Below are positions 7,741-55,890 of a DNA stretch of 64,000 nucleotides, piece by piece. Each line of letters starts with the position of its first letter. Position 1 is the stretch's first letter. Source of the DNA: Mobula hypostoma (taxonomy: Eukaryota); NCBI RefSeq assembly GCF_963921235.1, contig NC_086097.1:156180001-156244000 (forward strand), written 5' to 3'. Both the position numbers and the translations under genes were made by a program. Below the pieces are notes generated by a model. It made no database searches, was not told the DNA's origin, and saw only the letters and a list, made by a program, of their open reading frames with translations.

Positions 7741-8596
7741 TGTTACGAGAATACACATAAAATTAAGATGTTTGCTGGCCTGGGCTAGCATCAGTGGCAT
7801 CAGCAGTTGGTCTGCCACCTGCCCTCAGGGGAAGGAGAGATAAGGAACAATGGAGCAGCGTCTGGAGATGTGTAATGGAGGGACGTGGGAGAGGGAGCTG
7901 TCTGGAGCGGCTCCCCCTTTGAACCCTGAACTGTTTGAAGTGGTGGACAGGCGATACCCCAGCAGGGGGATAAAAAGGGACAGGTTCGCTAAGACAGACA
8001 CACACGCCACCCGAGGTAACGAGACCCTGGAAGCGGTACGCTTCTCACGAGTGGGTGAGAAGTACCAGACAACGACCAGGGTGGAAAGGTACGATCAGCG
8101 GGAACCCGGTGTGTGTCCGCCCTTGCCTGGGTGCCGGGTTCACTGCAGAGGATCGACCGCATCTGGAGGAGGGGTCACAGTCGGTGACCTCAGGTGACAT
8201 CACCAAGGACCCGCCCAAATGCTGTTTGTGAGCCATCCCGCTGGTCTGTGAGTGAAGCCGTTCTGAATGATCAGTTGTTCCTATTCTGTCTCTCTTCCCC
8301 CACCTTGTCCATCGCCATGGCAACGATTACTGCGAACTGAACTACAAACTGGACTGAACTTTGAGTCATTTTGAAATTGGTCATTTACCCCTAGACAACG
8401 ATAGAGCTTGATTGATGCTGTTATCTTAATTCTGTGCACATGTGTGGTTATCATTGTTGAATTGTTGCATTTATTATCCTTTCGATTACCGTGTTGCTTG
8501 TTTCTTTAATAAAACTTTCTTAGTTCTAGTACTCCAGACTCCAACTGAGTGATCCATTTCTGCTGGTTTGGCAACCCAGTTACGGGGTACGTAACA
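7741..8596 (+). mobile_element. Solo LTR of a Gypsy family related to the element at 49711
   Basis: TGTTAC...GTAACA termini, 4-bp TSD TGTG (7737-7740, 8597-8600) and AATAAA at 8508. Extensive similarity to the reverse complement of the LTRs at 49711 and 53833. Confidence 0.92.
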
Positions 8597-15316: not shown

Positions 15317-16952
15317 CAAGTCAAGCCAAGTCACTTTTTATTGTCATTTCGACCATACCTGCTGGTACAGTACACAGTAAAAATGAGACAGTAGTTTTCA
15401 GGACCATGGTGCTACATGAACAGTACAAAAACTACACTGTACTATGTGAAGCAACACAAAACTACACTAGACTACAGACCTACCCAGGTCTGCATAAAGT
15501 GTACAAAACAGCGCAGGCATTACAATAAATAATAAACAAGACAATAGGCACAGTAGAGGGCAGTAGGTTGGTGTCAGTCCAGGCTCTGGGTATTGAGGAG
15601 TCTGATGGCTTGGGGGAAGAAACTGTTACATAGTCTGGTCGTGAGATCCCGAATACTTCGGTGTCTTTTGCCAGATGGCAGGAGGGAGAAGAGTTTGTAT
15701 GAGGGGTGCATGGGGTCCTTCATAATGCTGTTTGCTTTACGGATGCAGCGTGTGGTGTAAATTTCTGTAATGGCAGGAAGAGAGACCCCGATGATCTTCT
15801 CAGCTGACCTCACTATCTGCTGCAGGGTCTTGCGATCCGAGATGGTGCAATTTCCGAACCAGGCAGTGATGCAGCTGCTCAGGATGCTTTCAATACAACC
15901 TCTGTAGAATGTGGTGAGGATGAGAGGTGGGAGATGGACTTTTCTCAGTCTTCGCAGAAAGTAGAGACACTGCTGGGCCTTCTTTGCTATGGAGCTGGTG
16001 TTGAGGGACCAGGTGAGATTCTCGGCCAGGTGAGCACCAAGAAATTTGGTGCTCTTAACGATCTCTATGGAGGAGTCATCGATGTTCAGCGGGCAGTTGT
16101 CATTCCGTTTCCTCCTGAAGTCAACAACCATCTCTTTTGTTTTGTTCACATTCAGAGACAGGTTGTTGGCTCTGCACCAGTCCGCTAGCCGCTGCACCTC
16201 CTCTCTGTATGCTGACTCATCATTCTTGCTGATGAGACCCACCACGGCCATGTCATCGGCGAACTTGATGATGTGCTTTGAGCTGTGTGTTGCAGCACAG
16301 TCGTGGGTCAGCAGAGTGAACAGCAGTGGACTGAGCACACAGCCCTGGGGGGCCCCCGTGCTCAGTGTGATGGTGTTGGAGATGCTGCTTCCAATCCAGA
16401 CTGACTGAGGTCTCCCAGTCAGGAAGTCTAGGATCCAGTTGCAGAAAGAGGTGTTCAGGCCCAGTAGGCTCAGCTTTTCAGTCAGTTTCTGAGGAATGAT
16501 TGTGTTGAATGCTGAACTGAAGTCTATGAACAGCATTCGAACGTACGTGTCTTTTTTGTCCAGGTGGGTTAAGGCCAGGTGGAGAGTGATGGCAATGGCG
16601 TCGACTATTGAACGGTTGGGATGGTATGCGAACTGCAGGGGATCCAGTGAGGGGGGCAGCAGGGTCTTGATGTGCCTCATGACAAACCTCTCGAAACACT
16701 TTATGATGATGAATGTGAGTGCGACGGGATGGTAGCTGTTGAGGCAGGACACTGAAGACTTCTTCAGCACGGGAACGATGGTGGCGACCTTGAAGCATGT
16801 AGGAACGACAGCGACTCTCAGGGAGATGTTGAAGATATCAGTGAGAATCTCAGCTAGCTGGTCTGCACATCCTCTAAGCACTCTGCCAGGAATATTGTCT
16901 GGTCCAGCAGCCTTCCGTGGGTTGACCCTGCACAGGGTTCTCCTCGCATCGG
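15317..16952 (-). mobile_element. Rex1/Babar LINE, 5'-truncated, young
   Basis: (CTTGA)n-like tail; contains an open RT ORF. Confidence 0.92.
15574..16881 (-). CDS. Reverse transcriptase portion of Rex1/Babar ORF (435 aa, truncated copy)
   Basis: [37 protein letters not shown] and KFLG motifs, uninterrupted. Confidence 0.85.
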
Positions 16953-17028
16953 CTCAGTCCTATTTTTAAGCTCCCTACTGACTTATCAAATTTCCCAAAT
17001 GAAATTTACAGTGCCAAATGTCCTGTTT

Positions 17029-25414: not shown

Positions 25415-26732
25415 CAGAATCAGAATCAGGTTTATTATCACTGATATGCATCATGAAATTTGTTAACTTAGCAACAGCAGTTCAATGCAATACACAATAC
25501 AGAATATAGAAGAAGGAGAAAAAATAATAAAATCATGATAATAATAAATAAATAAAGTGCAGTATACATATGTTGATCAGATGAAAAATTGTGCACAAAA
25601 CAGAAATAATATATACTAAAAAGGTGAGGTAGAGTTCATGGGTTCAATGTCCATTTAGGAATCGGATGGCAGAGAGGAAGAAACTCTTCCTGAATCACTG
25701 AGTGTGTGCCTTCAGGCTTCTGTACCTCCTACCCAAAGGTAACAGTGAGAAAAGGGCATGCCCTGGGTGCTGGAGGTCCCTAGTAATGGACGCTGCCTTT
25801 CTGAGACACCGCTCCTTGAAGATGTCCTGGGTACTTTGTAGGCTAGTACCCAAGATGGAGCGGACAAGATTTATAACCCTCTGCAGCTTCTTTGGGTCCT
25901 GTGCTGTAGTCCCCCCACTCCCATTACAGACAGAGATGCAGCCTGTCAGAATGCTCTCCATGGTACATCTATAGAACTTCTTGAGTGTATTTGTTGACAT
26001 GTCAAATCTCTTCAAACTCCTAATGAAGTATAGTCACTGTCTTGCCTTCTTTATAACTGCATCGATATGTTGGGACCAGGTTAGATCCTCAGAGATCATG
26101 ACACCTAGGAACCTAAGACTGCTCACTCTCTCCACTTCTGATCCCTCTATGAGGATTGGTTCGTGTTACCTCGTCTTACCCTTCCTGAAGTCCACAATCA
26201 GCTCTTTGTCTTATTGACGTTGAGTGCCAGGTTGTTGCTGCGACACCACCCCACTGGTTGGTATATCTCACTCCTGTACGTCCCCTTGTCTCCATCTGAG
26301 ATTCTACCAACAATGGTTGTATCATCTGCAAATTTATAGATGGCATTTGAGCTATACCTAGCCACACAGTCATGGGTAAAGAGAGAGTAGAGCAGTGGGC
26401 TAAGCACACACCCCTGAGGTGCACCAGTGTTGATCGTCAGCAATGAAGAGATGTTATCACCAATCCGCACAGATTGTGGTTTTCTGGTTAGGAAGTCAAG
26501 GATCCAATTGCAGGGGTAGGTACAGAGGCCCAGATTCTGCAACTTCTCAATCAGGACTGTGGGAATGATGGTGTTAAACACTGAGCTATAGTCGATAAAC
26601 AGCATCCTGACGTAGGTGTTTGTGTTGTCCAGGTGATCTAAGGCTGTATGAAGAGCCATTGAGATTGCATCCGCCATTGACCTAATGTGGCGATAAGCAA
26701 ATTACAAGGGGTCCAGGTCCTACCTGAGGCAG
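25415..26732 (-). mobile_element. Rex1/Babar LINE, 5'-truncated
   Basis: ORFs 26198-26677 ([19 protein letters not shown]) and 25695-26015; (ATCAGA)n tail. Confidence 0.92.
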
Positions 26733-32701: not shown

Positions 32702-34308
32702 AAACACGAGAAAATCTACAGATGCTGGAATTTCAAGCAATGCACATAAAAATTGCTGGTGAACGCAGTAGGCCAGGCAGCATCTATAGGAGGAGGTACA
32801 GTTGATGTTTCAGGCCGAGAACCTTTGTCAGGACTAACTGAAAGAAGAAATAATAAGAGATTTGAAAGTGGGAGGGAGAGGGGGAGATCCGAAATGATAG
32901 GAGAAGACTGGAGGGGGAGGGTTAAAGCTAAGATCTGGAAAGTTGATTGGCAAAAGGGATATGAGAGGATCATGGGGCGGGAGGCCAAGAGGGAAAGAAA
33001 GGGAGAGGGGTGAAGCCCAGAGGATGGAAAAGGAGTATAGTGAGAGGGACAGAGGGAGAGAAAAAAAAAATAATAATAAATAAATAACAGATGGGATACA
33101 AAGGGAAGGTGGGGCATTAACAGTAGTTAGAGAAGTCAATGTTCGTGCCATCAGGTTGGAGGCTACCCAGACAGAATATAAGGTGCTGTTCCTCCAACCT
33201 GAGTGTGGCTTCATCTTGACAACAGAGGAGGCCATGGATAGACATATCAGAATGGGAATGAGACGTGGAATTAAAACGTGTGGCCACTGGGAGATCCTGC
33301 TTTCTCTGGCGGACAAAGCATATGTGTTCAGCGAAACGATCTCCCAGTCCGTGTCGGGTCTTGCCAATATATAGAAGGCCACATCGGGAGCACTGGACGC
33401 AGTATATCACCCCAGTTGACTCACAGGTGAAGTGTCGGCTCACCTGGAAGGACTGTCTGGGGCCCTGAATGATGGTGAGGGAGGAAGTGTAAGGGTATGT
33501 GTAGCACTTGTTCCGCTTACAAGGATAAGTGCCAGGAGGGAGATCAGTGGGAAGGGATGGGGGGGGGGAATGAATGGACAAGTAAGTCGCATAGGGAGTG
33601 ATCCCTGTAGAAAGCGGAGGGGGGGGGGAGAGAAAGATGTGCTTAGTGGTGGGATCCTGTTGGAGGTGGCGAAAGTTATGGAGAATCATATGTTGGACGC
33701 AGAGGCTGGTTTGGTGGTAGGTGAGGACAAGGGGAACCCTATTCCTAGTGGGGTGGTGGGAGTATGGGGTGAGAGCAGATGTGCGTGAAATGGGAGCGAT
33801 GTGTTTGAGAGCAGAGTCGATGGTGGAGGAAGGGAATCCCCTTTCTTTAAAAAAGGAGGACATCTCCTTCGTCCTGGAATGAAAAGCCTCATTCTGAGAG
33901 CAGATGCGGCAGAGACAGAAGAATTGTGAGAAGGGGATGGCATTTTTGTAAGAGACAAGGTGAGAAGAGGAATAGTCCAGGTGGCTGTGAGAGTCCATAG
34001 GCTTATAGTAGACATCAGTAGATAAGCTGTCTCCAGAGGTAGAGACAGAAGGATCCAGAAAGGGGAGGGAGGTGTTGGAAATGGACCAGGTAAACTTGAG
34101 GGCAGGGTGAAAGTTGGAGGCAAAGCTAATGAAGTCAATGAGCTCAGCATGCGTGCAGGAAGCAGCGCCAATGTCTTACTCTCTTACTCTCTCTTACTAT
34201 CTCTTCTTTCATTTAGTCCTGATGAAGGGTCTCGGCCCAAAACGTCGACTGTACCTCTCCTGTAGACGCTGCCTGGCCTGCTGCGTTCACCAGCAGTTTT
34301 TATGTGTG
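32702..34308 (-). mobile_element. Penelope-like retroelement, 5'-truncated, with inverted pLTR
   Basis: RT C-terminus plus GIY-YIG ORF; pLTR at about 32702-32860 and inverted partial copy at about 34190-34308; 16-bp flanking direct repeat CTGCCTGAAACAATGA. Confidence 0.9.
33117..33998 (-). pseudogene. Penelope RT thumb/linker and GIY-YIG endonuclease (293 aa remnant)
   Basis: DSHSHLDYSSSH, NAIPFSQF, RVPLVLTYH and GVIYCVQCSRCGLLYIGKTRHGLGDRFAEH motifs. Confidence 0.88.
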
Positions 34309-35831: not shown

Positions 35832-38514
35832 ATAGAAACATAGAAACATAGAAAATAGGTGCAGGAGTAGGCCATTCGGCCCTTCGAGCCTGCACCGCCA
35901 TTTATTATGATCATGGCTGATCATCCAACTCAGAACCCCGCCCCAGCCTTCCCTCCATACCCCCTGACCCCCGTAGCCACAAGGGCCATATCTAACTCCC
36001 TCTTAAATATAGCTAATGAACTGGCCTCAACTGTTTCCTGTGGCAGAGAATTCCACAGATTCACCACTCTCTGTGTGAAGAAGTTTTTCCTAATCTCGGT
36101 CCTAAAAGGCTTCCCCTCTATCCTCAAACTGTGGCCCCTCATTCTGGACTTCCCCAACATCGGGAACAACCTTCCTGCATCTAGCCTGTCCAATCCCTTT
36201 CGGATCTTATACGTTTCAATCAGATCCCCCCTCAATCTTCTAAATTCCAACGAGTACAAGTCCAGTTCATCTAGTCTTTCTTCATATGAAAGTCCTGCCA
36301 TCCCAGTAATCAATCTGGTGAACCTTCTTTGTACTCCCTCTATGGCAAGGATGTCTTTCCTCAGATTAGGGGACCAAAACTGCACACGATACTCCAGATG
36401 TGGTCTCACCAAGGCCTTGTACAACTGCAGTAGTACCTCCCTGCTCCTGTACTCGAATCCTCTCGCTATAAATGCCAGCATACCATTCGCCTTTTTCACC
36501 GCCTGCTGTACCTGCATGCCCACTTTCAATGACTGGTGTATAATGACACCCAGGTCTCGTTGCACCTCCCCTTTTCCTAATCGGCCACCATTCAGATAAT
36601 AATCTGTTTTCCTATTTTTGCCACCAAAGTGGATAACTTCACATTTATCCACATTAAATTGCATCTGCCATGAATTTGCCCACTCACCCAACCTATCCAA
36701 GTCACTCTGCATCCTCTTAGCATCCTCCTCACAGCTAACACTGCCACCCAGCTTCGTGTCATCCGCAAACTTGGAGATGCTGCATTTAATTCCCTCATCC
36801 AAGTCATTAATATATATTGTAAACAACTGGGGTCCCACCACTGAGCCTAGCGGTACCCCACTCGTCACCGCCTGCCATTCTGAAAAGGTCCCGTTTATTC
36901 CCACTCTTTGCTTTCTGTCTGCTAACCAATTCTCCACCCACACCAATACCTTACCCCCAATACCGTGTGCCTTAAGTTTGCACACTAATCTCCTGTGTGG
37001 AACCTTGTCAAAAGCCTTTTGAAAATCCAAATATACCACATCCACTGGTTCTCCCCTATCCACTCTACTAGTTACATCCTCAAAAAATTCTATGAGATTC
37101 GTCAGACATGATTTTCCTTTCACAAATCCATGCTGACTTTGTCCGATGATTTCACCGCTTTCCAAATGTGCTGTTATCACATCCTTGATAACTGACTCCA
37201 GCAGTTTCCCCACCACTGACGTTAGGCTAACTGGTCTATAATTCCCTGGTTTCTCTCTCCCTCCTTTTTTAAAAAGTGGAGTAACATTAGCCACCCTCCA
37301 ATCCTCAGGAACTAGTCCAGAATCTAACGAGTTTTGAAAAATTATCACTAATGCATCCACTATTTCTTGGGCTACTTCCTTAAGCACTCTAGGATGCAGA
37401 CCATCTGGCCCTGGGGATTTATCTGCCTTCAATCCCTTCAATTTACCTAACACCACTTCCCTACTAACATGTATTTCCCTCAGTTCCTCCATCTCACTGG
37501 ACCCTCTGTCCCCTACTATTTCTGGAAGATTATTTATGTCCTCCTTAGTGAAGATAGAACCAAAGTAATTATTCAATTGGTCTGTCATGTCCTTGCTCCC
37601 CATAATCAATTCACCTGTTTCTGTCTGCAGGGGACCTACATTTGTCTTTACCAGTCTTTTCCTTTTTACATATCTATAAAAGCTTTTACAGTCCAGTTTT
37701 ATGTTCCCTGCCAGTTTTCTCTCATAATCTTTTTTCCCCTTCCTAATTAAGCCCTTTGTCCTCCTCTGCTGAACTCTGAATTTCTCCCAGTCCTCAGGTG
37801 AGCCACTTTCTCTGGCTAATTTGTATGCTTCTTCTTTGGAATTGATACTATCCCTAATTTCTCTTGTCAGCCATGGGTGCACTACCTTCCTTGATTTATT
37901 CTTTTGCCAAACTGGGATGAACAATTGTTGTAGTTCATCCATGCAACCTTTAAATGCTTGCCATTGCATATCCACCGTCAATCCTTTAAGCGTCATTTGC
38001 CAGTCTATCTTAGCTAATTCACATCTCATACCTTCAAAGTTACCCCTCTTTAAGTTCAGAACCTTTGTTTCGGAATTAACTATGTCACTCTCCATATTAA
38101 TGAAGAATTCCACCATATTATGGTCACTCTTACCCAAGGGGCCTCTCACGACAAGATCGCTAATTAACCCTTCCTCATTGCTCAAAACCCAGTCCAGAAT
38201 AGCCTGCTCTCTAGTTGGTTCCTCGACATGTTGGTTCAAAAAACCATCCCGCATACATTCCAAGAAATCCTCTTCCTCAGCACCTTTACCAATTTGGTTC
38301 ACCCAATCTACATGTAGATTGAAGTCACCCATTATAACTGCTGTTCCTTTATTGCACACATTTCTAATGTCCTGTTTAATACCATCTCCGACCTCACTAC
38401 TACTGTTAGGTGGCCTGTACACAACACCCACCTGCGTCTTCTGCCCCATATCGATTCCACATCTTCCCGGCTTATGTCCTTCCTTTCTACTGCGTTAATC
38501 TCTCCTTTAACCAG
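35832..38514 (-). mobile_element. Young CR1 LINE, 5'-truncated within the endonuclease
   Basis: Tail (ATAGAAAC)n on the plus strand; long uninterrupted ORF2. Confidence 0.95.
35930..38449 (-). CDS. CR1 ORF2: partial APE endonuclease plus complete reverse transcriptase (839 aa)
   Basis: VYRPP, MGDFN, LGKSDH, KSPGPDG, YRPVSLTS, QHGF, DFQKAFD and SKFADDTK motifs with no stops. Confidence 0.93.
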   Translation of the reverse strand: MGQKTQVGVVYRPPNSSSEVGDGIKQDIRNVCNKGTAVIMGDFNLHVDWVNQIGKGAEEEDFLECMRDGFLNQHVEEPTREQAILDWVLSNEEGLISDLVVRGPLGKSDHNMVEFFINMESDIVNSETKVLNLKRGNFEGMRCELAKIDWQMTLKGLTVDMQWQAFKGCMDELQQLFIPVWQKNKSRKVVHPWLTREIRDSINSKEEAYKLARESGSPEDWEKFRVQQRRTKGLIRKGKKDYERKLAGNIKLDCKSFYRYVKRKRLVKTNVGPLQTETGELIMGSKDMTDQLNNYFGSIFTKEDINNLPEIVGDRGSSEMEELREIHVSREVVLGKLKGLKADKSPGPDGLHPRVLKEVAQEIVDALVIIFQNSLDSGLVPEDWRVANVTPLFKKGGREKPGNYRPVSLTSVVGKLLESVIKDVITAHLESGEIIGQSQHGFVKGKSCLTNLIEFFEDVTSRVDRGEPVDVVYLDFQKAFDKVPHRRLVCKLKAHGIGGKVLVWVENWLADRKQRVGINGTFSEWQAVTSGVPLGSVVGPQLFTIYINDLDEGIKCSISKFADDTKLGGSVSCEEDAKRMQSDLDRLGEWANSWQMQFNVDKCEVIHFGGKNRKTDYYLNGGRLGKGEVQRDLGVIIHQSLKVGMQVQQAVKKANGMLAFIARGFEYRSREVLLQLYKALVRPHLEYRVQFWSPNLRKDILAIEGVQRRFTRLITGMAGLSYEERLDELDLYSLEFRRLRGDLIETYKIRKGLDRLDAGRLFPMLGKSRMRGHSLRIEGKPFRTEIRKNFFTQRVVNLWNSLPQETVEASSLAIFKRELDMALVATGVRGYGGKAGAGF

Positions 38515-40352: not shown

Positions 40353-41960
40353 AGACTGATGGGACCGAAGGCTAACAAATCCCCAGGTCCAGATGGTCTG
40401 CATCCTAGGGTACTAAAGGAGGTGGCTCTGGAAATTGCGGATGCATTGGTGATCATTTTCCAATGTTCCTTAGATTCAGGATCAGTTCCTGAGGATTGGT
40501 GAACGGCTAATGTTATCCCACTTTTTAAGAAAGGAGGGAGGGAGAAAACAGAACTATCGCCCTGTTAGCCTAACATCAGTAGTGGGGAAGATGCTAGAGT
40601 CCATTATTAAAGATGAAATAGCGGCATATCTTGATAGCAGTGATAGGATTGGGCCGAGCCAGCATGGATTTACCAAGGACAAATCATTCTTGTCTAATCT
40701 ATTGGAGTTTTTCGAGGATGTAACCAGGAAGATAGACGCGGGAGATCCAGTGGATGTGGTGTACCTTGACTTTCAGAAGGCATTTGATAAGGTACCACAT
40801 AGGAGATTGGTGGGTAAAATCAGAGCTCATGGCATTGGGGGGAGGATATTGACATGGATAGAAAACTGGTTGGCAGATAGAAAGCAAAGGGTAGCAGTGA
40901 ATGGGTGTTTCTCGGAATGGCAGGTGGTGACTAGTGGGGTGCCACAGGGCTCGGTATTGGGACGACAGCTGTTTATGATTTACGTCAATGATTTAGAGGA
41001 AGGCATTGTGAATAACATCAGCAAGTTTGCTGATGATACTAAGCTGGGTGGCAGTGTGACATGTGATGAGGATGTTAGGAGAATTCAAGGTGACTTGGAT
41101 AGGCTGGGTGAGTGGGCAGAAACTTGGCAGATGGCGTTTAATGTGAATAAGTGTGAGATTATTCACTTTGGGAGCAAGAACAGGAAGGTAGATTATTATC
41201 TGAACGGTGTGGAGTTAGGTAAGGGAGAAATACAAAGAGATCTAGGAGTACTTGTTCATCAGTCTCTGAAGGTGAATGAGCAAGTGTAGCAGGCTGTGAA
41301 GAAGGCTAATGGAATATTGGCCTTTATTACAAAGGGAATTGAGTATAAGAGCAAGGAAATCCTTTTGCATTTGTACAGGGCCCTGGTGAGACCACACCTG
41401 GAGTATTGTGTGCAGTTTTGGTCTCCAGGTTTAAGGAAGGACATCCTGGCTGTGGAGGAGGTGCAGCGTAGGTTCACTAGGTTAATTCCTGGGATGTCCA
41501 GACTGTCTTACGCAGAAAAGTTAGAGAGACTGGGCTTGTACACGCTGGAATTAAGGAGATTGAGGGGAGATCTGATTGAGACATATAAGATTATTAAGGG
41601 ATTGGACAAGATAGAGGGAGGAAATATGTTCCAGATGCTGGGAGAGTCCAGTACCAGAGGGCATGGTTTAAGAATAAGGGGTAGGTCATTTAGGACAGAG
41701 TTGAGGAGGAACTTCTTCTCCCAGAGAGTTGTGGAGGTGTGGAACGCACTGCCTCAGAAGGCAGTGGAGGCCAATTCTCTGGATGCTTTCAAGAAGGAGC
41801 TAGATAGGTATCTTATGGATAGGGGAATCAAGGGTTATGGGGACAAAACAGGAACCAGGTATTGATAGTAGATGATCAGCCATGATCTCAGAATGGTGGT
41901 GCAGGCTCAAAGGGCCGAATGGTCTACTTCTGCACCTATTGTCTATTGTCTATTGTCTAT
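40353..41960 (+). mobile_element. CR1 LINE RT and 3' end with a few stops
   Basis: ORFs 40510-41289 and 41296-41865 in the same frame (SKFADDTKLGG); tail (CTATTGT)n. Confidence 0.93.
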
Positions 41961-47134: not shown

Positions 47135-48676
47135 AGTGCAACCTGCACTTTGGTTAGCTCTGAGGCTGAAGTATGTAGGTGTTTCCAACAAGTGGACAGC
47201 CGCGAGGCTGCGGGACTGGGCGGGATCCCAGAGCGGGTACACAGAGAATGTGCGGCACAACTGCTGGTGTGTTTGCAGACATTTTTAATCTCTCCCTCTA
47301 CCAGTATAGAGTGCCCTCCTGTTTCAAAACATTCACCGTTGTCCCTGTACCAAAAAAGACCAAGATAACATGTCTGAACGACTGGTGTCCTGTCACATTC
47401 ATCTCAATAATAAGCAAATGATTTTAGAAGCTGGTCAAGGATTACATCTGCAACACGTTACCACCTACAATTTGCCTACTGACATAACTGATCGACAGAT
47501 GATGCAATAGCCACAGCTCTACACATGGAGAAGAACGAAGCTTATGTGAGAACGCTGTTCTTGGACTACAATTCAGCATTCAACAGAATAATTGCATCCA
47601 GGCTTGACAAGAAGCTCAGAGACCTCGGCCTTCACCCTGCCTTGTGTAGCTGGATCCTGGACTTCCTGTCAGATTGCCAGCAGGTGGTAAGAGTGGGCTC
47701 CCTCACCTCTGCCCCTCTGACTCTCAACACAGGAGCCCCCCCAGGGCTGTGTCCTAAGCCCCCTCCTGACTCTCCGTACACCAGTGAGTGTGCCTCCACC
47801 CACAGCTCCAATCTGCAAATTAAATTTGCAGATGATACTACATTAATTGGCCTTATCTTAAATAACAACGAGGCAGCCTACAGAGAAGAAGTCATCACCC
47901 TGACACAGTGGTATCAAGAAAACAACCTCTCCCTCAATGTCGCAAAAACAAAGAAGCTGGTTGTGGGCTACAGGAGGAACAGAGGCAGGCTCATCCTTAT
48001 TAACATCAATGGATGTGGGGTTGAGAAGGTGAACAACTTTAAGTTCCTCGGCATACACATCACCGAGAATATCAGGTGGTCTGTATATATCGGCTGTGTG
48101 GTGAAAAAAGCACAACAGCACCTCTTTCACTTCAGACGGTTGAGGAGGTTCAGCATGAATCTCCAAATCTGAAGAACTTCCTATAGGGGCACAATTGAGA
48201 GCATCCTGACTGGCTGTATCACTGCCTGGTATAGGAACTGTACTTCCCTCAATCACAGGACTTTGCAGAGAGTGGTGTGGACAGCCCAGCACATCTGTGG
48301 ATATGGACTTCCCACTATTCGGGACATATACAGCGACAGGTGCGTAAAAAGGGCCTGAAGGATCGTAGGGGATCAAACTTTTCCAGCTACTACCATCCGG
48401 GAAATGGTAGCACAACATTAAAGCCAGGACAAACAGGCTCCGGGACAGCTTCTTCCATCAAGCCATCAGACTGATTAATTCATGCTGACACAATTGTATT
48501 TCTAATCTATATTGACTGCTCTGTTGTATACCTTGCTGTACATACTATTTATTACAAATTACTATAATTTGCACATTGCACATTCAGATGGAGAGGTAAC
48601 ATAAAGATTTTTACTTCTCATGTATGTGAAGGATGTAAGAAATAAAGTCAATTCAATTCAATTCAGTTCAATTCAG
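47135..48676 (+). mobile_element. Rex1/Babar LINE RT and 3' end, frameshifted
   Basis: ORF 47525-48172 (LDYNSAFN, KFADDTT, FKFLG); (AATTC)n tail. Confidence 0.9.
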
Positions 48677-48924: not shown

Positions 48925-49335
48925 GTTGTTTGAGTTGGCTGAGATCCTTCATCAGGATTGGACAGGAAGGGGAAAGAAACCAGAATCAGAAAGTGGCGAA
49001 AGGGGAGGGAGTAGATTGGGGATCACTTCGTCGAGCCATTTTGCTCTGTCTGCCACAAAAGGTGGGATTTCCCAGTGGTCACCCATTTCAATTTGACTTG
49101 CTGTTCTCATTCCAACATGTCGGCCTATGGCCTTCTCTACTGTCATAATTAGGCGACAGTCAGGTGGAGGAGGAACACCTCGTATTCCATTTGGTTAGCC
49201 TTCCAACCTGATGGCATGAACATCGATTTCTCTAACTTCCAGTAATTTCTCCCCCCTCCCCCTTCTCTCTTACTCCCATTCTCCATTCTGGTTTCGCACT
49301 CAACTCTTCTCTTTTCCTTAACTGCCCATTACCTC
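48925..49335. mobile_element. Penelope fragments (inverted pLTR, then GIY-YIG end on plus strand)
   Basis: ccttcatcagg on the minus strand at about 48950; the plus strand encodes EEEHLVFHLVSLQPDGMNIDFSNF. Confidence 0.75.
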
Positions 49336-49710
49336 CCGAGGGATATTGAGTCCACAGAGGAAGTAGAAGGAACAAATCAACAAGGAACAAATGAGGTGCT
49401 TGAGAAGTATAGGAAATGAAAGTGAACATTTAAGAGTGAAATTAGGAGGGCTGAAAGAAGGCATGAGGTTCCTCTGGTAGATGGAGGAAGAGAAACCCAA
49501 GGATGTCTACATTTATACTAAGAGCAAAAGGATAACAAGAAGATGAGAGTGGTCATCTCCCCAAGGAGCTGAAAGAGATGGCGGAGATCTTAAATAGATT
49601 TTTTTGCATCAGAAGGTGGTGAAAATGTGCAGTGAGCTGCCAGCAGAAGTATAGGACGTGGGTAATTGTAATTTTAAAATTGTAATTTTTTAAGAGAAGT
49701 TAGTGAAGAT

Positions 49711-50613
49711 TGTTACATACCCCGTAACTGGGTTGCCAAACCAGCAGAAATGGACCACTCAGTTGGAGTCCAGATTACTGGAACTAAGAAAGTTTTATTC
49801 AAGAAATAAGCAACACAGTACTCTAATAGTAAGGATATAAATGCAACAGGTTAGCAATGAATGAACACACATGTACACAGAACTAGGATAATAGGGTTAA
49901 TCAAGCTCTATCACAGTCTAAGGGTAAAATGATCAATCACAAGTGACAGAGTTCAGTTTAGTTCAGTTCACAGTAATCGCTGTTGTGCCATTGGAGAGAG
50001 AGAGAGAGAGAACGAATGAATATTCAAATTGGATTCCAAACAGACCTTCGATATTCCTTGCAGTCAGCTTTCGGGCGAGCCCTTTGTAATGTCTTCTGAG
50101 GTCACCGACTGTGACCCCTCCATTCCAGATACGATCGCTCCTCGGTGTGAACCCGGCACCCAGGCAAGGGCGGACACACACACCAGGTTCCCGCCGACCG
50201 TATCTTTCCACCCTGTGCGTCTATGGCTGGTCCCGCGACCAGCCCTCCAAAACTCCCACCGACTTGTGGGGGCGCACCGCTTCCAGGGTCTCGTTACCTC
50301 GTGGTGTCGTGAGTGGTGTCTGTTGCCTTAGTGAACCTGTCCCTTTTTATCCCCCCTGTTGGGGTATCGCCTGTCCATCAGACTTCAAACAGTTCAGGGT
50401 TCAAAGCAGCCGGTCCTGACAATACTCAGACCGGTGTCTCCTTCCATTAAACTCTCTCGTCTCTTCATTAACATTTCCAAATGCTGCTCCATTGTCTTAC
50501 TTATCTCTCTCTCCTGAAGACAGGTGGCAGATCAACTGATGATCCCATTTGTGATAGCACAGGACAGTTAACATCTTAGTCTATGTGTACTTTTGTAACC
50601 CTCTTTTGTCACA
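49711..50613 (-). repeat. 3' LTR (903 bp)
   Basis: Direct repeat of 53833-54711, adjacent to the PPT. Confidence 0.95.
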
Positions 50614-50625
50614 CCCCTCCCCTTT
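50614..50625 (-). promoter_or_regulatory. Polypurine tract
   Basis: Minus strand AAAGGGGAGGGG immediately before the 3' LTR start TGTGACA. Confidence 0.9.
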
Positions 50626-50699
50626 AAGGATTTTTACTGGGGTAAAAATTACAAGCATGAGTACATTATTAGATACACACAAATATACATCTTCATCAG

Positions 50700-52094
50700 C
50701 TATTTGGCTAATACAGAGAATTTTAAGTTGTCAACACCTGACAGACAGTCAGCAATCACATTTTCTGTTCCTTTTATTTGTGTTATTAATAATCCTCTCA
50801 AACCAGGCTCCAACTTAGTAGACTTCATAGTGGCCGAAGACACTAATGAATTGTGATCAGTGTAACTTCTCAGTGGTTTTCGCCCCGGACACAGATAACA
50901 AGGGTCGTCCCATACCAACTTAGCATTCTTTGGCAAGGGCTTTGTAAGAGGGTGGGTACTAGCCGCAAAGTTGTTTTTTTTTCTGCAAAACTTCCGATAG
51001 TACCCCACCATCTCCAAGAACCTTCTCAGGGCTCTCTTGTCTGTCGGGGTGGGGACTTCAGCGATAGCCCGCACCTTAGCTTGCATCGGAGCCAGCTGCC
51101 CCTGTCCTACCACAAATCCCAGATAAGTGACTTTTTCATGGCTGAATTCACTCTTTGCGAGGTTTACTGTCAGTCTGGCTTCAGACAGCCGTTTAAACAG
51201 TGCCACAATGTGCTTTCCCCACGTGTCATTCCAGACCACTACATCGCCAATATACACTTCTGTGTTCTTTAGCCCTTTTGTCACTGAATTAATCATTCTG
51301 TAGGGATGTTGCTCACTAGGCTGACCTGATGTGACAACAGCTCCATGTCCCAGCTCTTTGCATCGCCTCATGTCGTCTAGACCTACGTGCGCGTGCCATT
51401 TAATTAGCTTTATCAATGGCCCACTTTGTTCGGGGGTTAGGTGAGAGACCTTATCAGCAAAATGGGTCAAAACAATAGACATCTCCCATTTGGTTGGCAC
51501 CACACTTATCTTTTCAAAATGGGCCCTCCCCTTCTCAGGTGGCACCCTAGCCTCATTAATTTTCATGATATCACCAGCTAGTTCTGTTCTCTGATCGTGG
51601 TGGGCTTTTAACATGTTAATAGCCTCTAACTGTGTTAACTCACGTCTGCAAATGTCAATAACATCCTTCCTCCTGTGCAGCCAGTAAAACTCTTTCATGA
51701 TTCTGCCAACTGTTTCCTTCCCCCCAAAATGTCCACCGAGGGGTATCTTGTGGGCCAGGTTAAGAATCTCATCCCCATAATTTTTTGGCACCATCCCCCA
51801 TTCCTCATCTGCAGGTACGGTACTTGGTCTCCCCTTCTTCCTTAGCACTCCCTCCTCCACACAATAGCCTACTGGCTCCGTTTTCACCGTTGCTTCAGAG
51901 AGAGCTGTCTCCGCCGAAACCATCACCTCCTCGTCTTGCTCCTGTGCCTGTACAAAATCCTTCCTGGTTAATGCTAAGTCTGCCTCAACTCCCTCACTTC
52001 CTCCTGTTTCACTACACTCCTTCTTTTCACTTTCTACCTCCTCCTGGTATAAGGCTGGTAGAAACGTCTCAGCTAAATTTACTTCGGCAGTCAT
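50700..52094 (-). CDS. Deleted pol remnant: integrase Zn-finger, partial RT, RNase H tail (464 aa)
   Basis: AHKIPLGGHFGGKET...FYW, QHPYR, VYIGDVVV, LTVNLAKSEF, VTYLGFVV, LRRFLEMVGYYRKF, YTDHN and KGTENVIADCLS motifs. Confidence 0.85.
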   Translation of the reverse strand: MTAEVNLAETFLPALYQEEVESEKKECSETGGSEGVEADLALTRKDFVQAQEQDEEVMVSAETALSEATVKTEPVGYCVEEGVLRKKGRPSTVPADEEWGMVPKNYGDEILNLAHKIPLGGHFGGKETVGRIMKEFYWLHRRKDVIDICRRELTQLEAINMLKAHHDQRTELAGDIMKINEARVPPEKGRAHFEKISVVPTKWEMSIVLTHFADKVSHLTPEQSGPLIKLIKWHAHVGLDDMRRCKELGHGAVVTSGQPSEQHPYRMINSVTKGLKNTEVYIGDVVVWNDTWGKHIVALFKRLSEARLTVNLAKSEFSHEKVTYLGFVVGQGQLAPMQAKVRAIAEVPTPTDKRALRRFLEMVGYYRKFCRKKNNFAASTHPLTKPLPKNAKLVWDDPCYLCPGRKPLRSYTDHNSLVSSATMKSTKLEPGLRGLLITQIKGTENVIADCLSGVDNLKFSVLAK

Positions 52095-53733
52095 TCAGGA
52101 CACACGCCGAGTCTCTGCGCGAACGGGATGAACCTGTGAGTCCATGGGCGGGGCCTCAATGCTGGCAGGCTGACCTGTCAGTCTCACTGCCGAGAACACA
52201 ATTCCCCCGGCGAGGTCATTACCGAGCAAGACTTCCACGCCTTTCATCGGTATTTCGGGCCTCACCCCGATCGTGACTAGTCCAGAGACCAAGTTGCTTT
52301 GTAGGTGTATCTGGTGCAAAGGGACTGCCTCTGTCCCTTTTCCAATGCCTTTTATGACCCTGACTTTCCCAGTCTCGGTCTCTGAACTAAAGTCTAACAC
52401 ACCCTTTAATATCAATGACTGACACGCTCCCGTGTCTTTCCAGATCCATACTGGAACTGGGTTTAACCCCTCCTTCACCGACACCAATCCGGCTGAGATA
52501 AACCTCTCGCACCCTTCCTGAACTTTGGCAGACCTTTCCTCTCCTAGCAATTTGTTTACCAGCTCACTACAGCCAGTCGAAATCGCCGTTTTTCTTTTTC
52601 CCGTCTCCTTCTTTGGGGCAAAGCACCTGCACGCAAAGTGTCCGACTTTCCCACAATTATAACAGACGACCCCAGGAGACTTCCTACCAGACTGCTCCTG
52701 GTCTACCTTATCCTTCTCACTAGTCCCCGGCTTACTTATTGACTTTTCCGGTGGACTCTCCCCGCCATCCTGACTACCCTTCTGGTAGCCTTTACTCGGG
52801 GCAAACTTCATTTTATGCGTCAACGCGTACTCATCCGCTAACTTAGCAGTTGCGGCTAACGTGTCTGCCTCTTTCTCATCTAGGTAGGGTCTCATACCAT
52901 CAGGGACACAACCTTTAAACTGCTCAATCAGGATCAGCTGTAGCAGTCTGTCATAATCCCCATTTACCCCCTTCGAGGCACACCAACGCTCACAATATGT
53001 CTGCATCTCACGGGCAAACTCTAAATACGTGCGGTCCCACTGTTTCCTCGAATTCTGGAACGTCTGCCGGTATGCCTCCGGGACCAACTCATAAATCCTG
53101 AGGATGGCCTCTTTCACCACCTCATACCTCTGGGCATCTTCCGCAGACAAAGCCGAGTAAGCTTGTTGGGCTTTCCCTTTAAGTACACTCTGAAGCAAAA
53201 CAACCCACTTATCCCTCGGCCAGTCCTGACTTGCAGCAACTTTTTTGAAATGGAGAAAGTACCGATCCACCTCGGTATCGTCAAATGGGGGAACCAGCCT
53301 AACCTCCTGGGTCGCCCTGAACCCTCCACCTTGGTTCGGCATGGGCCCCTGCTCTGCCATCATCTTTAACCTCTCCAGCTCGAATTCCCTTTCCCTCTGT
53401 TTCTCTTCTCGCTCCAACTGCCTCTCTTCTCATTGTTGTTCTAACTGTTTCTCTTCATGTTCCCCGGAACGCGTGCTCGAGTCTCAGTTTTTCAAGCTGC
53501 ACCTGTACTGCGTCTCCACCAGGTTTTCCAATAGATATCACCTCCAGCTCCCCTTGGGGAAACACACCTTTAGATACATAGTGCTCTACGATAGCTCTGT
53601 GCATCTCCTCTCTCCTCATTGTCGACTTCCCCTTAACAAGATTCAACCGTTTGGCCACAGCTGCCTATTCCGTTTTCCTGGCATCCTCTAATGTCTCCAA
53701 GGTCGGCGCCTTTAGAAATTCCTCAATCTCCAT
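52095..53733 (-). CDS. Gag (capsid/SCAN-related region, CCHC knuckle) plus aspartic protease; N-terminal part disrupted
   Basis: Open over 52095-53417: VPPFDD, WVVLLQSVLKGKAQ, LIEQFK, CYNCGKVGHFACRC, DTGA and LLGNDL. The likely original ATG is at 53733 (MEIEEFLKAP), followed by a stop and a frameshift. Confidence 0.85.
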
Positions 53734-53809
53734 TTCTGCTGTTTGCCTTTTCTTTCTTTCGGGAATTTTAACCCAATCAATTTACCCCGTCCCAAATTTA
53801 GCATTCGAA

Positions 53810-53828
53810 ATCCCGGACGAGAACCCCA
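53810..53828 (-). promoter_or_regulatory. Primer binding site, tRNA-Pro-like
   Basis: Minus strand TGGGGTTCTCGTCCGGGAT, 4 nt after the 5' LTR, versus canonical PBS-Pro TGGGGGCTCGTCCGGGAT. Confidence 0.85.
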
Positions 53829-53832
53829 CTTA

Positions 53833-54711
53833 TGTTACGTACCCTGTAACTGGGTTGCCAAACCAGCAGAAATGGACCACTCAGTTGGAGTCTGGATTAC
53901 TGGAACTAAGAAAGTTTTATTCAAGAAATAAGCAACACAGTACTCTAATAGTAAGAATATAAATGCAACAGGTTAGCAATGAATAAACACACATGTACAC
54001 AGAACTAGGATGATAGGGTCAATCAAGCTCTATCGCAGTCTAGGGGTAAAATAATCAATCACAAGTGACAGAGTTCAGTTTAGTTCAGTTCGCAGTAATC
54101 GCTGTTGTGCCGTTGGAGAGAGAGAGAGAGAGAGAGAACGAATGAATGTTCAAATCGGATTCCAAACAGACCTTCGATATTTCTTGCAGGCAGCTTTCGG
54201 GTGAGCCTTGACCCCTCCGTTCCAGATACGATCGTTCTTCAGCGGTGAACCCCGTACCCAGGCAAGGGTGGACACACACACCAGGTTCCCGCCGACCGTA
54301 TCTTTCCACCCTGTGCGTCTATGGCTGGACCCGCGACCAGCCCTCCAAAACACCCACCGACTTGTGGGGGTGCACCGCTTCCAGGGTCTCGTTACCTCGT
54401 GGTGTCGTGAGTGGTGCCCGTTGCCTTAGAGAACCTGTCCCTTTTTATCCGCCCTGTTGGGGTATCGCCTGTCCATCAGACTTCAAACAGTTCAGGGTTC
54501 AAAGCAGCCGGTCCTGACAATACTCAGACCGGTGTCTCCTTCCGTTAAACTCTCTCGTCTCCTCATTAACATTTCCAAATGCTGCTCCATTGTCTTACTT
54601 ATCTCTCTCTCCTGAAGACAGGTGGCAGATCAACTGATGATCTCACTTGTGATAGCACAGGACAGTTAACTTCTTAGTCTATGTGTACTTTTGTAACCCT
54701 CTTTTGTCACA
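53833..54711 (-). repeat. 5' LTR (879 bp)
   Basis: Direct repeat of 49711-50613, lacking about 29 bp near 54208. Confidence 0.95.
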
Positions 54712-55084
54712 AGATACATGGATAAAAGTGGTATTTAGTGCTATGGTTCAGGTGCAGGAAAATGGAACTAGGCAGAGAAACAGATCAGTCTGAACTAGAT
54801 GGAGTGAAATACATGTTTCTGTGCTATGACTATGACTATAATTCATACTGTATTTTAAGTGGCATTTAACATTAATGGGGAGAAATGTGAAGGGAAACAT
54901 TAATTAGAAAGTAGCTTAGCTCCATATTATCTTTTTTCATGGAATAGATTACATGCTTGAGATAAAAAGTAGCCAGAAGATCCTAAGACCAAGTATAAAA
55001 CATTATGGAGTATTTATCAGATGAGGATTGCTCTCTCATCTAATACTTGAGCACTTATCTCTGATAACTAAGCATTGTTTTAAC

Positions 55085-55890
55085 ATTGAGCATAGAATGG
55101 TATACTGCAGTAACAGCCACTTATTCCCGTATTTGTGATGACCACAATGCTAATTTAGTCTAACCCTACCTGCCTATACTTTGTCTGTATTGCTCTATTC
55201 CCTGCCGGTTCATATGTCTGTTGAAATGCGACTTCAATATTGCTGTCATCTTCTTCTATTATCTCCTCTAGCAGGATGGTCCAGGCAACTGTCACTCTCT
55301 AAAATAAATCGGCCTCATACATCTCCATTAAACTTTCCTATCTTTCTACTCTGGGAAAAGAATCTGACCACTCTATCTATTTATAAACTTGTATCCATCT
55401 CCTCTCAGCCTCCAATGCTACAGAGAAAAAATCCACACAAATTGCTGGAATAACTCAGCAGGTCAGGCAGCATCTATGGAGAGGAATAAAGAGCCAATGA
55501 TATTTGGATTTAAAAAATCCAACTCTGTCATACCTCTGCTTGTAACTATAACTCTAAACCAGACAGCATTTTGGTGAATACCTCTGCACCCTTTCCAGTG
55601 CTTCCACATCCTTCCCACAGAGTGAAATGCACACAACATTGCAAATGTAACCCAACTGAATTTTTAAGCAGCTGCAGTATGAGTGCCTGGATTTTATACT
55701 CAAAGCCTCGATCAATGAAGGCAGCATGCTGCATGTTTTCATATCCACTCATGTGACACTTTCAGCGAGCTATGGACTTCCATTCTCTCTATACATTATT
55801 GCTCCTACGTGTCCCTTTTATTGTATATTTCCCTCTTGCATTTAACCTCCCAAAATGTGCCTCACAATTGCCTATACTTAACTCTATCTG
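55085..55890 (-). mobile_element. Old CR1 3' part with a short Penelope pLTR fragment inside (about 55430-55500)
   Basis: Minus-strand remnant KDVEALERVQR; pLTR-like ctggaataactcagcaggtcaggcagcatctatgg. Confidence 0.6.

Follow-up and report, generated by a model that had tools for sequence, protein, structure and literature searches.

Introduction

The domain order of Gmr1-like Ty3/Gypsy retrotransposons has been described (bioRxiv 10.1101/2025.03.03.638093), and P0004, a full-length Gmr1-like element of Pristis pectinata, encodes a SCAN capsid, a CCHC knuckle, a protease and an integrase placed before reverse transcriptase (RT) and RNase H, all in one open reading frame (ORF), with a 4-bp target site duplication (TSD). 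The element considered here shares these features. It lies on the minus strand of a 64,000-nucleotide stretch of the ray Mobula hypostoma (assembly GCF_963921235.1, contig NC_086097.1, positions 156,180,001 to 156,244,000 of the forward strand), the whole of which is called the window below, and it differs from P0004 in lacking the integrase core, the first half of RT and the greater part of RNase H, so that it cannot be autonomous. On balance, we read it as a dead copy of a long-lived, multi-copy, non-autonomous Gmr1-like Gypsy lineage of Mobula, in which the remnant of pol would act as a translated spacer.

Non-autonomous long terminal repeat (LTR) families that keep Gag are already known from wheat, zebrafish and mouse. 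Wheat RLG_Quinta and the “semi-autonomous” RLG_Sabrina are likewise Gypsy derivatives with Gag and without RT and integrase, and they are proposed to give Gag while a partner gives the enzymes (PMC11302176). They are, however, plant elements whose partner has been identified (Cereba for Quinta), and Quinta is described as GAG together with a domain whose function is unknown, whereas the ray element has a continuous Gag-protease-pol remnant ORF. Zebrafish Bhikhari (Bik-1 and Bik-2) comprises non-autonomous LTR families of a fish that also encode Gag (PMC12067270), but Bik is without any pol and a developmental host role has been shown for it. In mouse, IAP I-delta-1 is a successful non-autonomous deletion derivative with an open Gag-Pol fusion ORF, and the fusion is reported to be cis-acting (PMC6466679). 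IAP differs in being an endogenous retrovirus with a single 1.9-kb deletion inside gag-pol, whereas the ray Gypsy element has three pol deletions, whole Gag and protease, and a remnant with ~40% amino-acid divergence within the lineage. No description of the deleted Mobula family was found in the literature by title and abstract; Repbase and Dfam, which may list it, lay outside the scope of that search.

A Gmr1-like element without catalytic cores

A preliminary description of this DNA had reported an internal region of only 3.2 kb, three catalytic-core junctions in the pol ORF, YIGD instead of the RT motif YIDD, the presence of LTRs, polypurine tract and TSD, and the integrase-before-RT arrangement of Gmr1, and each of these points was borne out. 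The internal region measures 3219 nt, the insertion is delimited by the LTR alignment and by AGAT on both flanks (Table 1), YIGD is read in the alignment, and the remnant retains the order H2C2, integrase tail, RT and RNase H end. Integrase upstream of RT and RNase H, a SCAN capsid, TG...CA LTRs, a TSD and a polypurine tract thus mark the element as Gmr1-like, and it lacks the intact rve, RVT_1 and RNase H of an autonomous Gmr1.

Relative to P0004, against which the junction lengths were measured, the alignment shows a loss of ~289 aa of integrase, ~128 aa of RT and ~87 aa of RNase H, the integrase deletion taking the second Cys of H2C2, the DDE core and most of the C-terminal domain. The 464-codon pol remnant ORF contains zero stops; in Pfam, it matches Integrase_H2C2 at positions 1-48 of 59 and RVT_1 at positions 157-204 of 205 only, the latter under the cut-off, and gives no rve and no RNase H match. 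The claim of in-frame junctions in an open pol ORF holds for 464 aa without a stop and fails for a short out-of-frame stretch of RNase H (50795-50827). Pfam applied to the upstream ORF returned SCAN (PF02023) at 45 bits, above the cut-off of 27, and zf-CCHC at 19 bits, just under the cut-off of 20.8. A PDB search yielded zinc-knuckle matches at E 0.003 or weaker, SCAN at E 0.57 and nothing else, with no protease match.

Recurrence and single origin of the deletions

Protein collections and public DNA contigs were used to follow the deletions beyond the window, and the same deletions are present at many loci of two Mobula species. Among the best 120 of 144 matches, the four with high coverage are M. 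hypostoma proteins 858-966 aa long that share the gaps. In a motif census of 480 collected proteins, 20 have the integrase junction, 16 have the RT junction and 12 have all three; the motifs derive from known sequences, so that carriers of greater divergence would escape them. Seventeen of the 20 integrase-junction proteins come from M. hypostoma, on 13 contigs of different length, and three from M. birostris, with none from other species; 11 of the 20 reach the family's end. Five of the collected proteins (P0001, P0122, P0125, P0128 and P0396), gene models known as protein only, are single ORFs of 939-1004 aa that run from the start of Gag to that end. The contig comparison covered four public runs from four organisms, with 32 records listed, and among these records contigs 7-16% diverged from the window bridge all junctions in three runs: the integrase junction in X16 (records 11 and 13), the RT junction in X1 (record 5) and the RNase H junction in X18 (record 20). 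X1 record 3 likewise overlaps the region of the RNase H junction and, by its coordinates, satisfies a rule of 31 nt. X3 contigs enter the LTRs from the flanks by 26 and 29 nt, below that 31-nt rule, which gives a hint, and only a hint, of a shared insertion in a second organism. A gag scan of metagenome contigs matched its pattern 34 times, and none of these matches was confirmed as a relative. Of 24 runs listed, none is on record as RNA, which has no bearing on expression.

The 20 junction carriers among the 480 proteins rule out that the deletions are confined to this locus. Introns of gene models are ruled out as well, since the stretches are missing from the window DNA itself and DNA contigs have corresponding gaps of 12 and 45 nt.

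Undeleted relatives are found in Mobula (P0251, which covers Gag-protease and the beginning of the integrase core, and P0406, which covers RT and RNase H, both 72-76% identical in the matching parts) and in Hypanus (P0144, which carries rve), and in Pfam the relatives show rve ahead of RVT_1. Trees of the RT-C region and of Gag-protease were built from relatives with the Gmr1 domain order, leaving out the cod Gmr1 sequence and non-Gmr1 outgroups. In both, the deleted members form one clade (100/99), adjacent to undeleted Mobula sequence; in the Gag-protease tree, P0469, P0475 and P0121 end ahead of the junctions and their deleted state is assumed. The single clade in both trees rules out independent origins of the deletions, and the sequences show that the catalytic cores of integrase, RT and RNase H were lost in a single ancestor, whose descendants spread to many loci. 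The branching within the clade is a ladder leading from window-like forms to a young subfamily of M. hypostoma; its complete members have ~96-97% identity across the remnant, and its ORF ends at the position matching window 50795-50827.

Two observations on the collected proteins may be added. In the gag coiled-coil (~53400-53470 in the window; P0001-P0128), the copy number of an ERQEKERELE-type repeat varies in frame from locus to locus, with ORFs of 939-1004 aa. The RefSeq models P0001, P0127, P0406, P0407 and P0249, which consist of Gmr1 sequence in whole or in part or else cluster with it, bear the host-gene names MACC1, UBE2G2, HSPB1-associated protein, TRIC-A and mucin-6-like; they are likely to be insertions within those loci or chimeric models.

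Constraint on Gag-protease and on the pol remnant

Constraint was measured on protein sequences only, and it separates the two parts of the ORF. Between the window and P0001, capsid (CA) is identical at 158/170 positions (93%), linker plus nucleocapsid (NC) at 63/66 (95%) and protease (PR) at 87/106 (82%), as against 84/132 (64%), 54/103 (52%) and 80/113 (71%) in the parts of the remnant; the protease DTG and the CCHC knuckle are retained. Eighty-six full-length elements compared with P0004 show no such excess in Gag, mean identity being 50% for CA, 48% for PR and 56% for RT-C. Relative-rate comparison of P0001 with undeleted sequence gave 1 vs 4 changes in CA and 14 vs 10 in PR (not significant), and 39 vs 5 in the pre-integrase region (pre-IN; p=1e-7) and 21 vs 4 in RT-C (p=9e-4); for the window copy, the excess was significant in pre-IN (21 vs 5) and in the RNase H end (11 vs 2). 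Conserved columns of the remnant are kept between the window and P0001 no better than variable ones (53/86 vs 118/205, p=0.6), and in comparisons of the window with five deleted members, four showed conserved and variable columns being lost equally often, whereas undeleted elements compared with each other keep 35/36 conserved and 32/65 variable columns. At the protein level, capsid, nucleocapsid and protease have been kept under constraint, and the remnant drifts with a near-neutral amino-acid pattern. The selection for an open polyprotein that the preliminary description had suggested agrees with the sequence constraint on Gag and protease; the constraint on the remnant looks like one of frame or length only.

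Persistence of the reading frame

At the divergence of the remnant, 7.8-10 stops would be expected under neutrality and the probability of none is 3e-4 to 4e-5; none is observed in the window remnant, nor in the 11 proteins that reach the family's end. Thirteen small length changes 3′ of the protease and the three large ones, each present in at least two loci, keep the net frame, although at the protein level some could be pairs of frameshifts that cancel out. DNA contigs, unlike the protein sets, carry no open-frame filter. Among the records listed, the gaps in deep contigs or joints measure 12, 45 and 87 nt, all multiples of three, those in shallow contigs 3 and 9 nt, and those in shallower ones 1, 2 and 19 nt. 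The sole lineage-wide frameshift lies within the last ~40 codons. The remnant has thus mostly stayed translatable to ~90-190 nt from the 3′ LTR, in window coordinates.

Decay of the window copy

The window copy itself is dead. Its gag-pro, described earlier as open, is shifted in frame at ~53461-53471 and interrupted by stops at 53665-53667, 53430-53432 and 52095-52097, and the site of the last stop is read through in relatives; the open gag-pro frame is found instead in the five M. hypostoma gene models of 939-1004 aa. The LTR pair differs at 39 of 874 aligned nt (29 transitions and 10 transversions; Kimura two-parameter distance 0.046, or 4.6%). With 2.3% decay for each LTR, 450 codons should have gained ~1.0-1.35 stops; the copy has three in ~1000 codons, and its remnant has none (probability 0.28-0.38). 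These stop counts are ordinary post-insertion decay, and the open remnant of this single copy therefore proves little. Compared with the contigs on the plus strand (49200-55200), the window has T>C at 66-80 places vs A>G at 36-42 in four of four runs; on the sense strand of the element, this skew is a surplus of A for G in the window copy.

Features of the window

Table 1. Coordinates of the Gmr1-like element and of a related solo LTR in the window
Feature	Coordinates	Strand	Basis or remark
Whole element, Gmr1-like, LTR to LTR	49711-54711	minus
TSD AGAT, left	49707..49710	none	
3′ LTR, TG...CA ends	49711..50613	minus
Polypurine tract	50614..50625	minus	read from sequence
Pol remnant ORF, 464 aa (pre-integrase linker, partial H2C2, integrase tail, second half of RT, RNase H end)	50700..52094	minus	ORF, Pfam, alignment
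RNase H stretch, out of frame between two mutually cancelling shifts	50795..50827	minus
RNase H deletion junction, ~86-87 codons gone	50895..50900	minus	alignment; DNA contig bridge; at ~50898
RT deletion junction, ~128 codons gone	51294..51302	minus	alignment; DNA contig bridge; at ~51297
Integrase deletion junction, ~289 codons gone	51642..51650	minus	alignment; DNA contig bridge; at ~51645
Stop codon, gag-pro/pol remnant boundary in this copy	52095..52097	minus
Gag-pro ORF fragment, 444 aa	52098..53429	minus
Aspartic protease	~52179-52499, DTG at 52428-52436	minus	motif and alignment, without Pfam match
CCHC knuckle	~52629-52670	minus	within gag-pro fragment
Capsid/SCAN	52812-53081	minus	within gag-pro fragment
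Gag N-terminus, broken in window copy	53430..53733	minus
Primer-binding-site-like stretch, 4 nt past 5′ LTR	53810..53828	minus
5′ LTR	53833..54711	minus
TSD AGAT, right	54712..54715	none
Solo LTR, related subfamily, own TSD TGTG	7741..8596	plus

The primer-binding-site-like stretch presumably corresponds to the 3′ end of tRNA-Pro, and the match looks imperfect. The solo LTR, 75% identical to the element's LTR and on the opposite strand, is an independent insertion of a related subfamily. Elsewhere in the window, a long interspersed nuclear element (LINE), which we take to be of CR1 type, has an ORF of 854 codons without a stop at 35930-38494, with endonuclease and RT matches, and an inverted copy of it, 73% similar, lies at 40538-41865. 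Fragments of LINE RT occur at 15574-16953, 26198-26701 and 47492-48172, the first with RVT_1 and ALKBH8_N matches. A 352-codon frame at 33117-34175, presumably Penelope-like, has a weak GIY-YIG match (E 0.009, under the cut-off); repeats similar to it seem to flank the element on the left, and 49200-49400 is very deep in the contigs. No host exon came to light in the window, where no search was aimed at host exons.

Proposed mechanism and alternative explanations

Recurrent deletions, absent cores and, at the protein level, purifying constraint on Gag and protease agree with the earlier proposal of a non-autonomous lineage that supplies Gag and protease. That the lineage spreads in this way, borrowing RT and integrase, is in our view very probable. 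The element would make its own Gag and protease and package its own RNA, and RT/RNase H and integrase would be taken in trans from a co-expressed autonomous Gmr1 relative. Since gag and pol form a single ORF, an early stop would leave ~1.4 kb and part of the LTR as a 3′ untranslated region (UTR). Such a long 3′ UTR could expose the RNA to nonsense-mediated decay, or translation could become uncoupled from packaging, and because of this risk selection would remove stops and frameshifts while being blind to the encoded residues. That the pol remnant serves as a translated spacer of this kind we hold to be rather probable. In defective interfering RNAs of mouse hepatitis virus and equine arteritis virus, translation and not the encoded sequence is needed for the RNA to propagate, to judge from titles cited in PMC4395149; these are RNA viruses in culture, and the likeness is one of mechanism, not of family.

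Several observations weigh against this account, and some of them favour other explanations. No intact autonomous partner was found among the Mobula proteins, where the undeleted relatives are partial or damaged only: P0251 stops short within the integrase core, and P0406 is without the first RT aspartate. Nine of the 20 junction carriers end early, and shifted endings common to the pairs P0003/P0008 and P0258/P0409 would reflect either recurrent slippage or frame-broken copies that did spread. Since protein databases contain nothing but open frames, they inflate the in-frame count. Microhomology in the same frame at two of the three large junctions (at the RT junction, Arg-Met on both parental sides; at the integrase junction, Arg-Arg/Arg-Lys on both) would favour in-frame joins without selection, and a gene model of the crayfish Procambarus clarkii (P0284) joins QxxY-R to mid-RT R-M at the position of the ray RT junction. 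The microhomology, the crayfish model and the two common frame-broken endings would suit a history with no selection on frame at all, in which microhomology in template switching, database bias and luck in a few master copies kept the remnant open and only Gag-protease and cis signals mattered. Such a history is improbable in the face of the 13 further small shared length changes that keep the frame, the low probability of a neutral path without a stop and the 12-, 45- and 87-nt gaps in deep, unfiltered DNA contigs.

The remaining difficulties concern residues. With one outgroup, the relative rate of the window's RT-C is 14 vs 7 (p=0.19), and with the other it is 18 vs 5 and significant; and the window and P0250 together spare conserved remnant columns (78/84 vs 169/214, p=0.003), so that the early remnant was either constrained or exchanged sequence with helpers. 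This sparing, the retention of 33/36 conserved RT-C columns in the window and 32/36 in P0250, and the precedent of the IAP I-delta-1 fusion (PMC6466679) would fit a remnant peptide that works in cis, by tethering RNA, by recruiting helper RT or integrase (for instance with the RT thumb or the N-terminal piece of integrase), or as cleavage context for the protease. We regard this as unlikely, if still the better placed of the alternatives, given that the Zn-finger cysteines, YIDD and 18 aa of the RT palm are gone from the youngest and best-amplified subfamily, which has no Pfam pol match and does not spare conserved columns. A host that keeps Gag-protease (co-opted, of restriction type, or with domestication under way) while the copies spread passively would accord with the proposed derivation of SCAN from the Gmr1 capsid (bioRxiv 10.1101/2025.03.03.638093), with the host roles of zebrafish Bik Gag proteins (PMC12067270) and with the multi-transcript RefSeq models at several loci. 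Dispersed copies with TSDs, the solo LTR, the subfamily ladder and neutral post-insertion decay fit selfish spread instead, no single conserved orthologous locus was seen, and host retention is accordingly very improbable.

A separate clade in stingrays

Three proteins, P0146 (Hemitrygon akajei), P0147 (Hypanus sabinus) and P0148 (ENA), combine SCAN-Gag and a protease motif with no Pfam pol match, and form a separate clade (100/100). Behind the protease motif they have an open tail of ~300 aa that is weakly gag-pro-like (24-26% identity; a three-sequence comparison gave E 2e-9 and 2e-7, and E was 0.002 for P0148). Known from protein only, they are possibly a second non-autonomous lineage with a different filler, which would accord with the notion of a spacer. 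It is tempting, if still short of an even chance, to suppose that single-ORF Gypsy elements need their RNA translated to near the 3′ LTR and that rays hold two independent solutions. Equally tentatively, these solutions may be an eroding in-frame pol remnant in Mobula and a degenerate gag-pro duplicate tail in the stingray clade.

Implications

This transposon gives rise to at least 20 of the SCAN-domain proteins that RefSeq lists for Mobula as “uncharacterized” or under wrong names. Within one ORF, the lineage records two kinds of selection, one at the protein level on capsid, nucleocapsid and protease and one, apparently on frame only, on a remnant of 1.2-1.4 kb, and this record spans a ladder of subfamilies in two species. 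It thereby bears on why defective retroelements stay translatable, for which avoidance of decay, packaging coupled to translation and a cis-acting fusion are explanations that may be tested with genome and RNA data.

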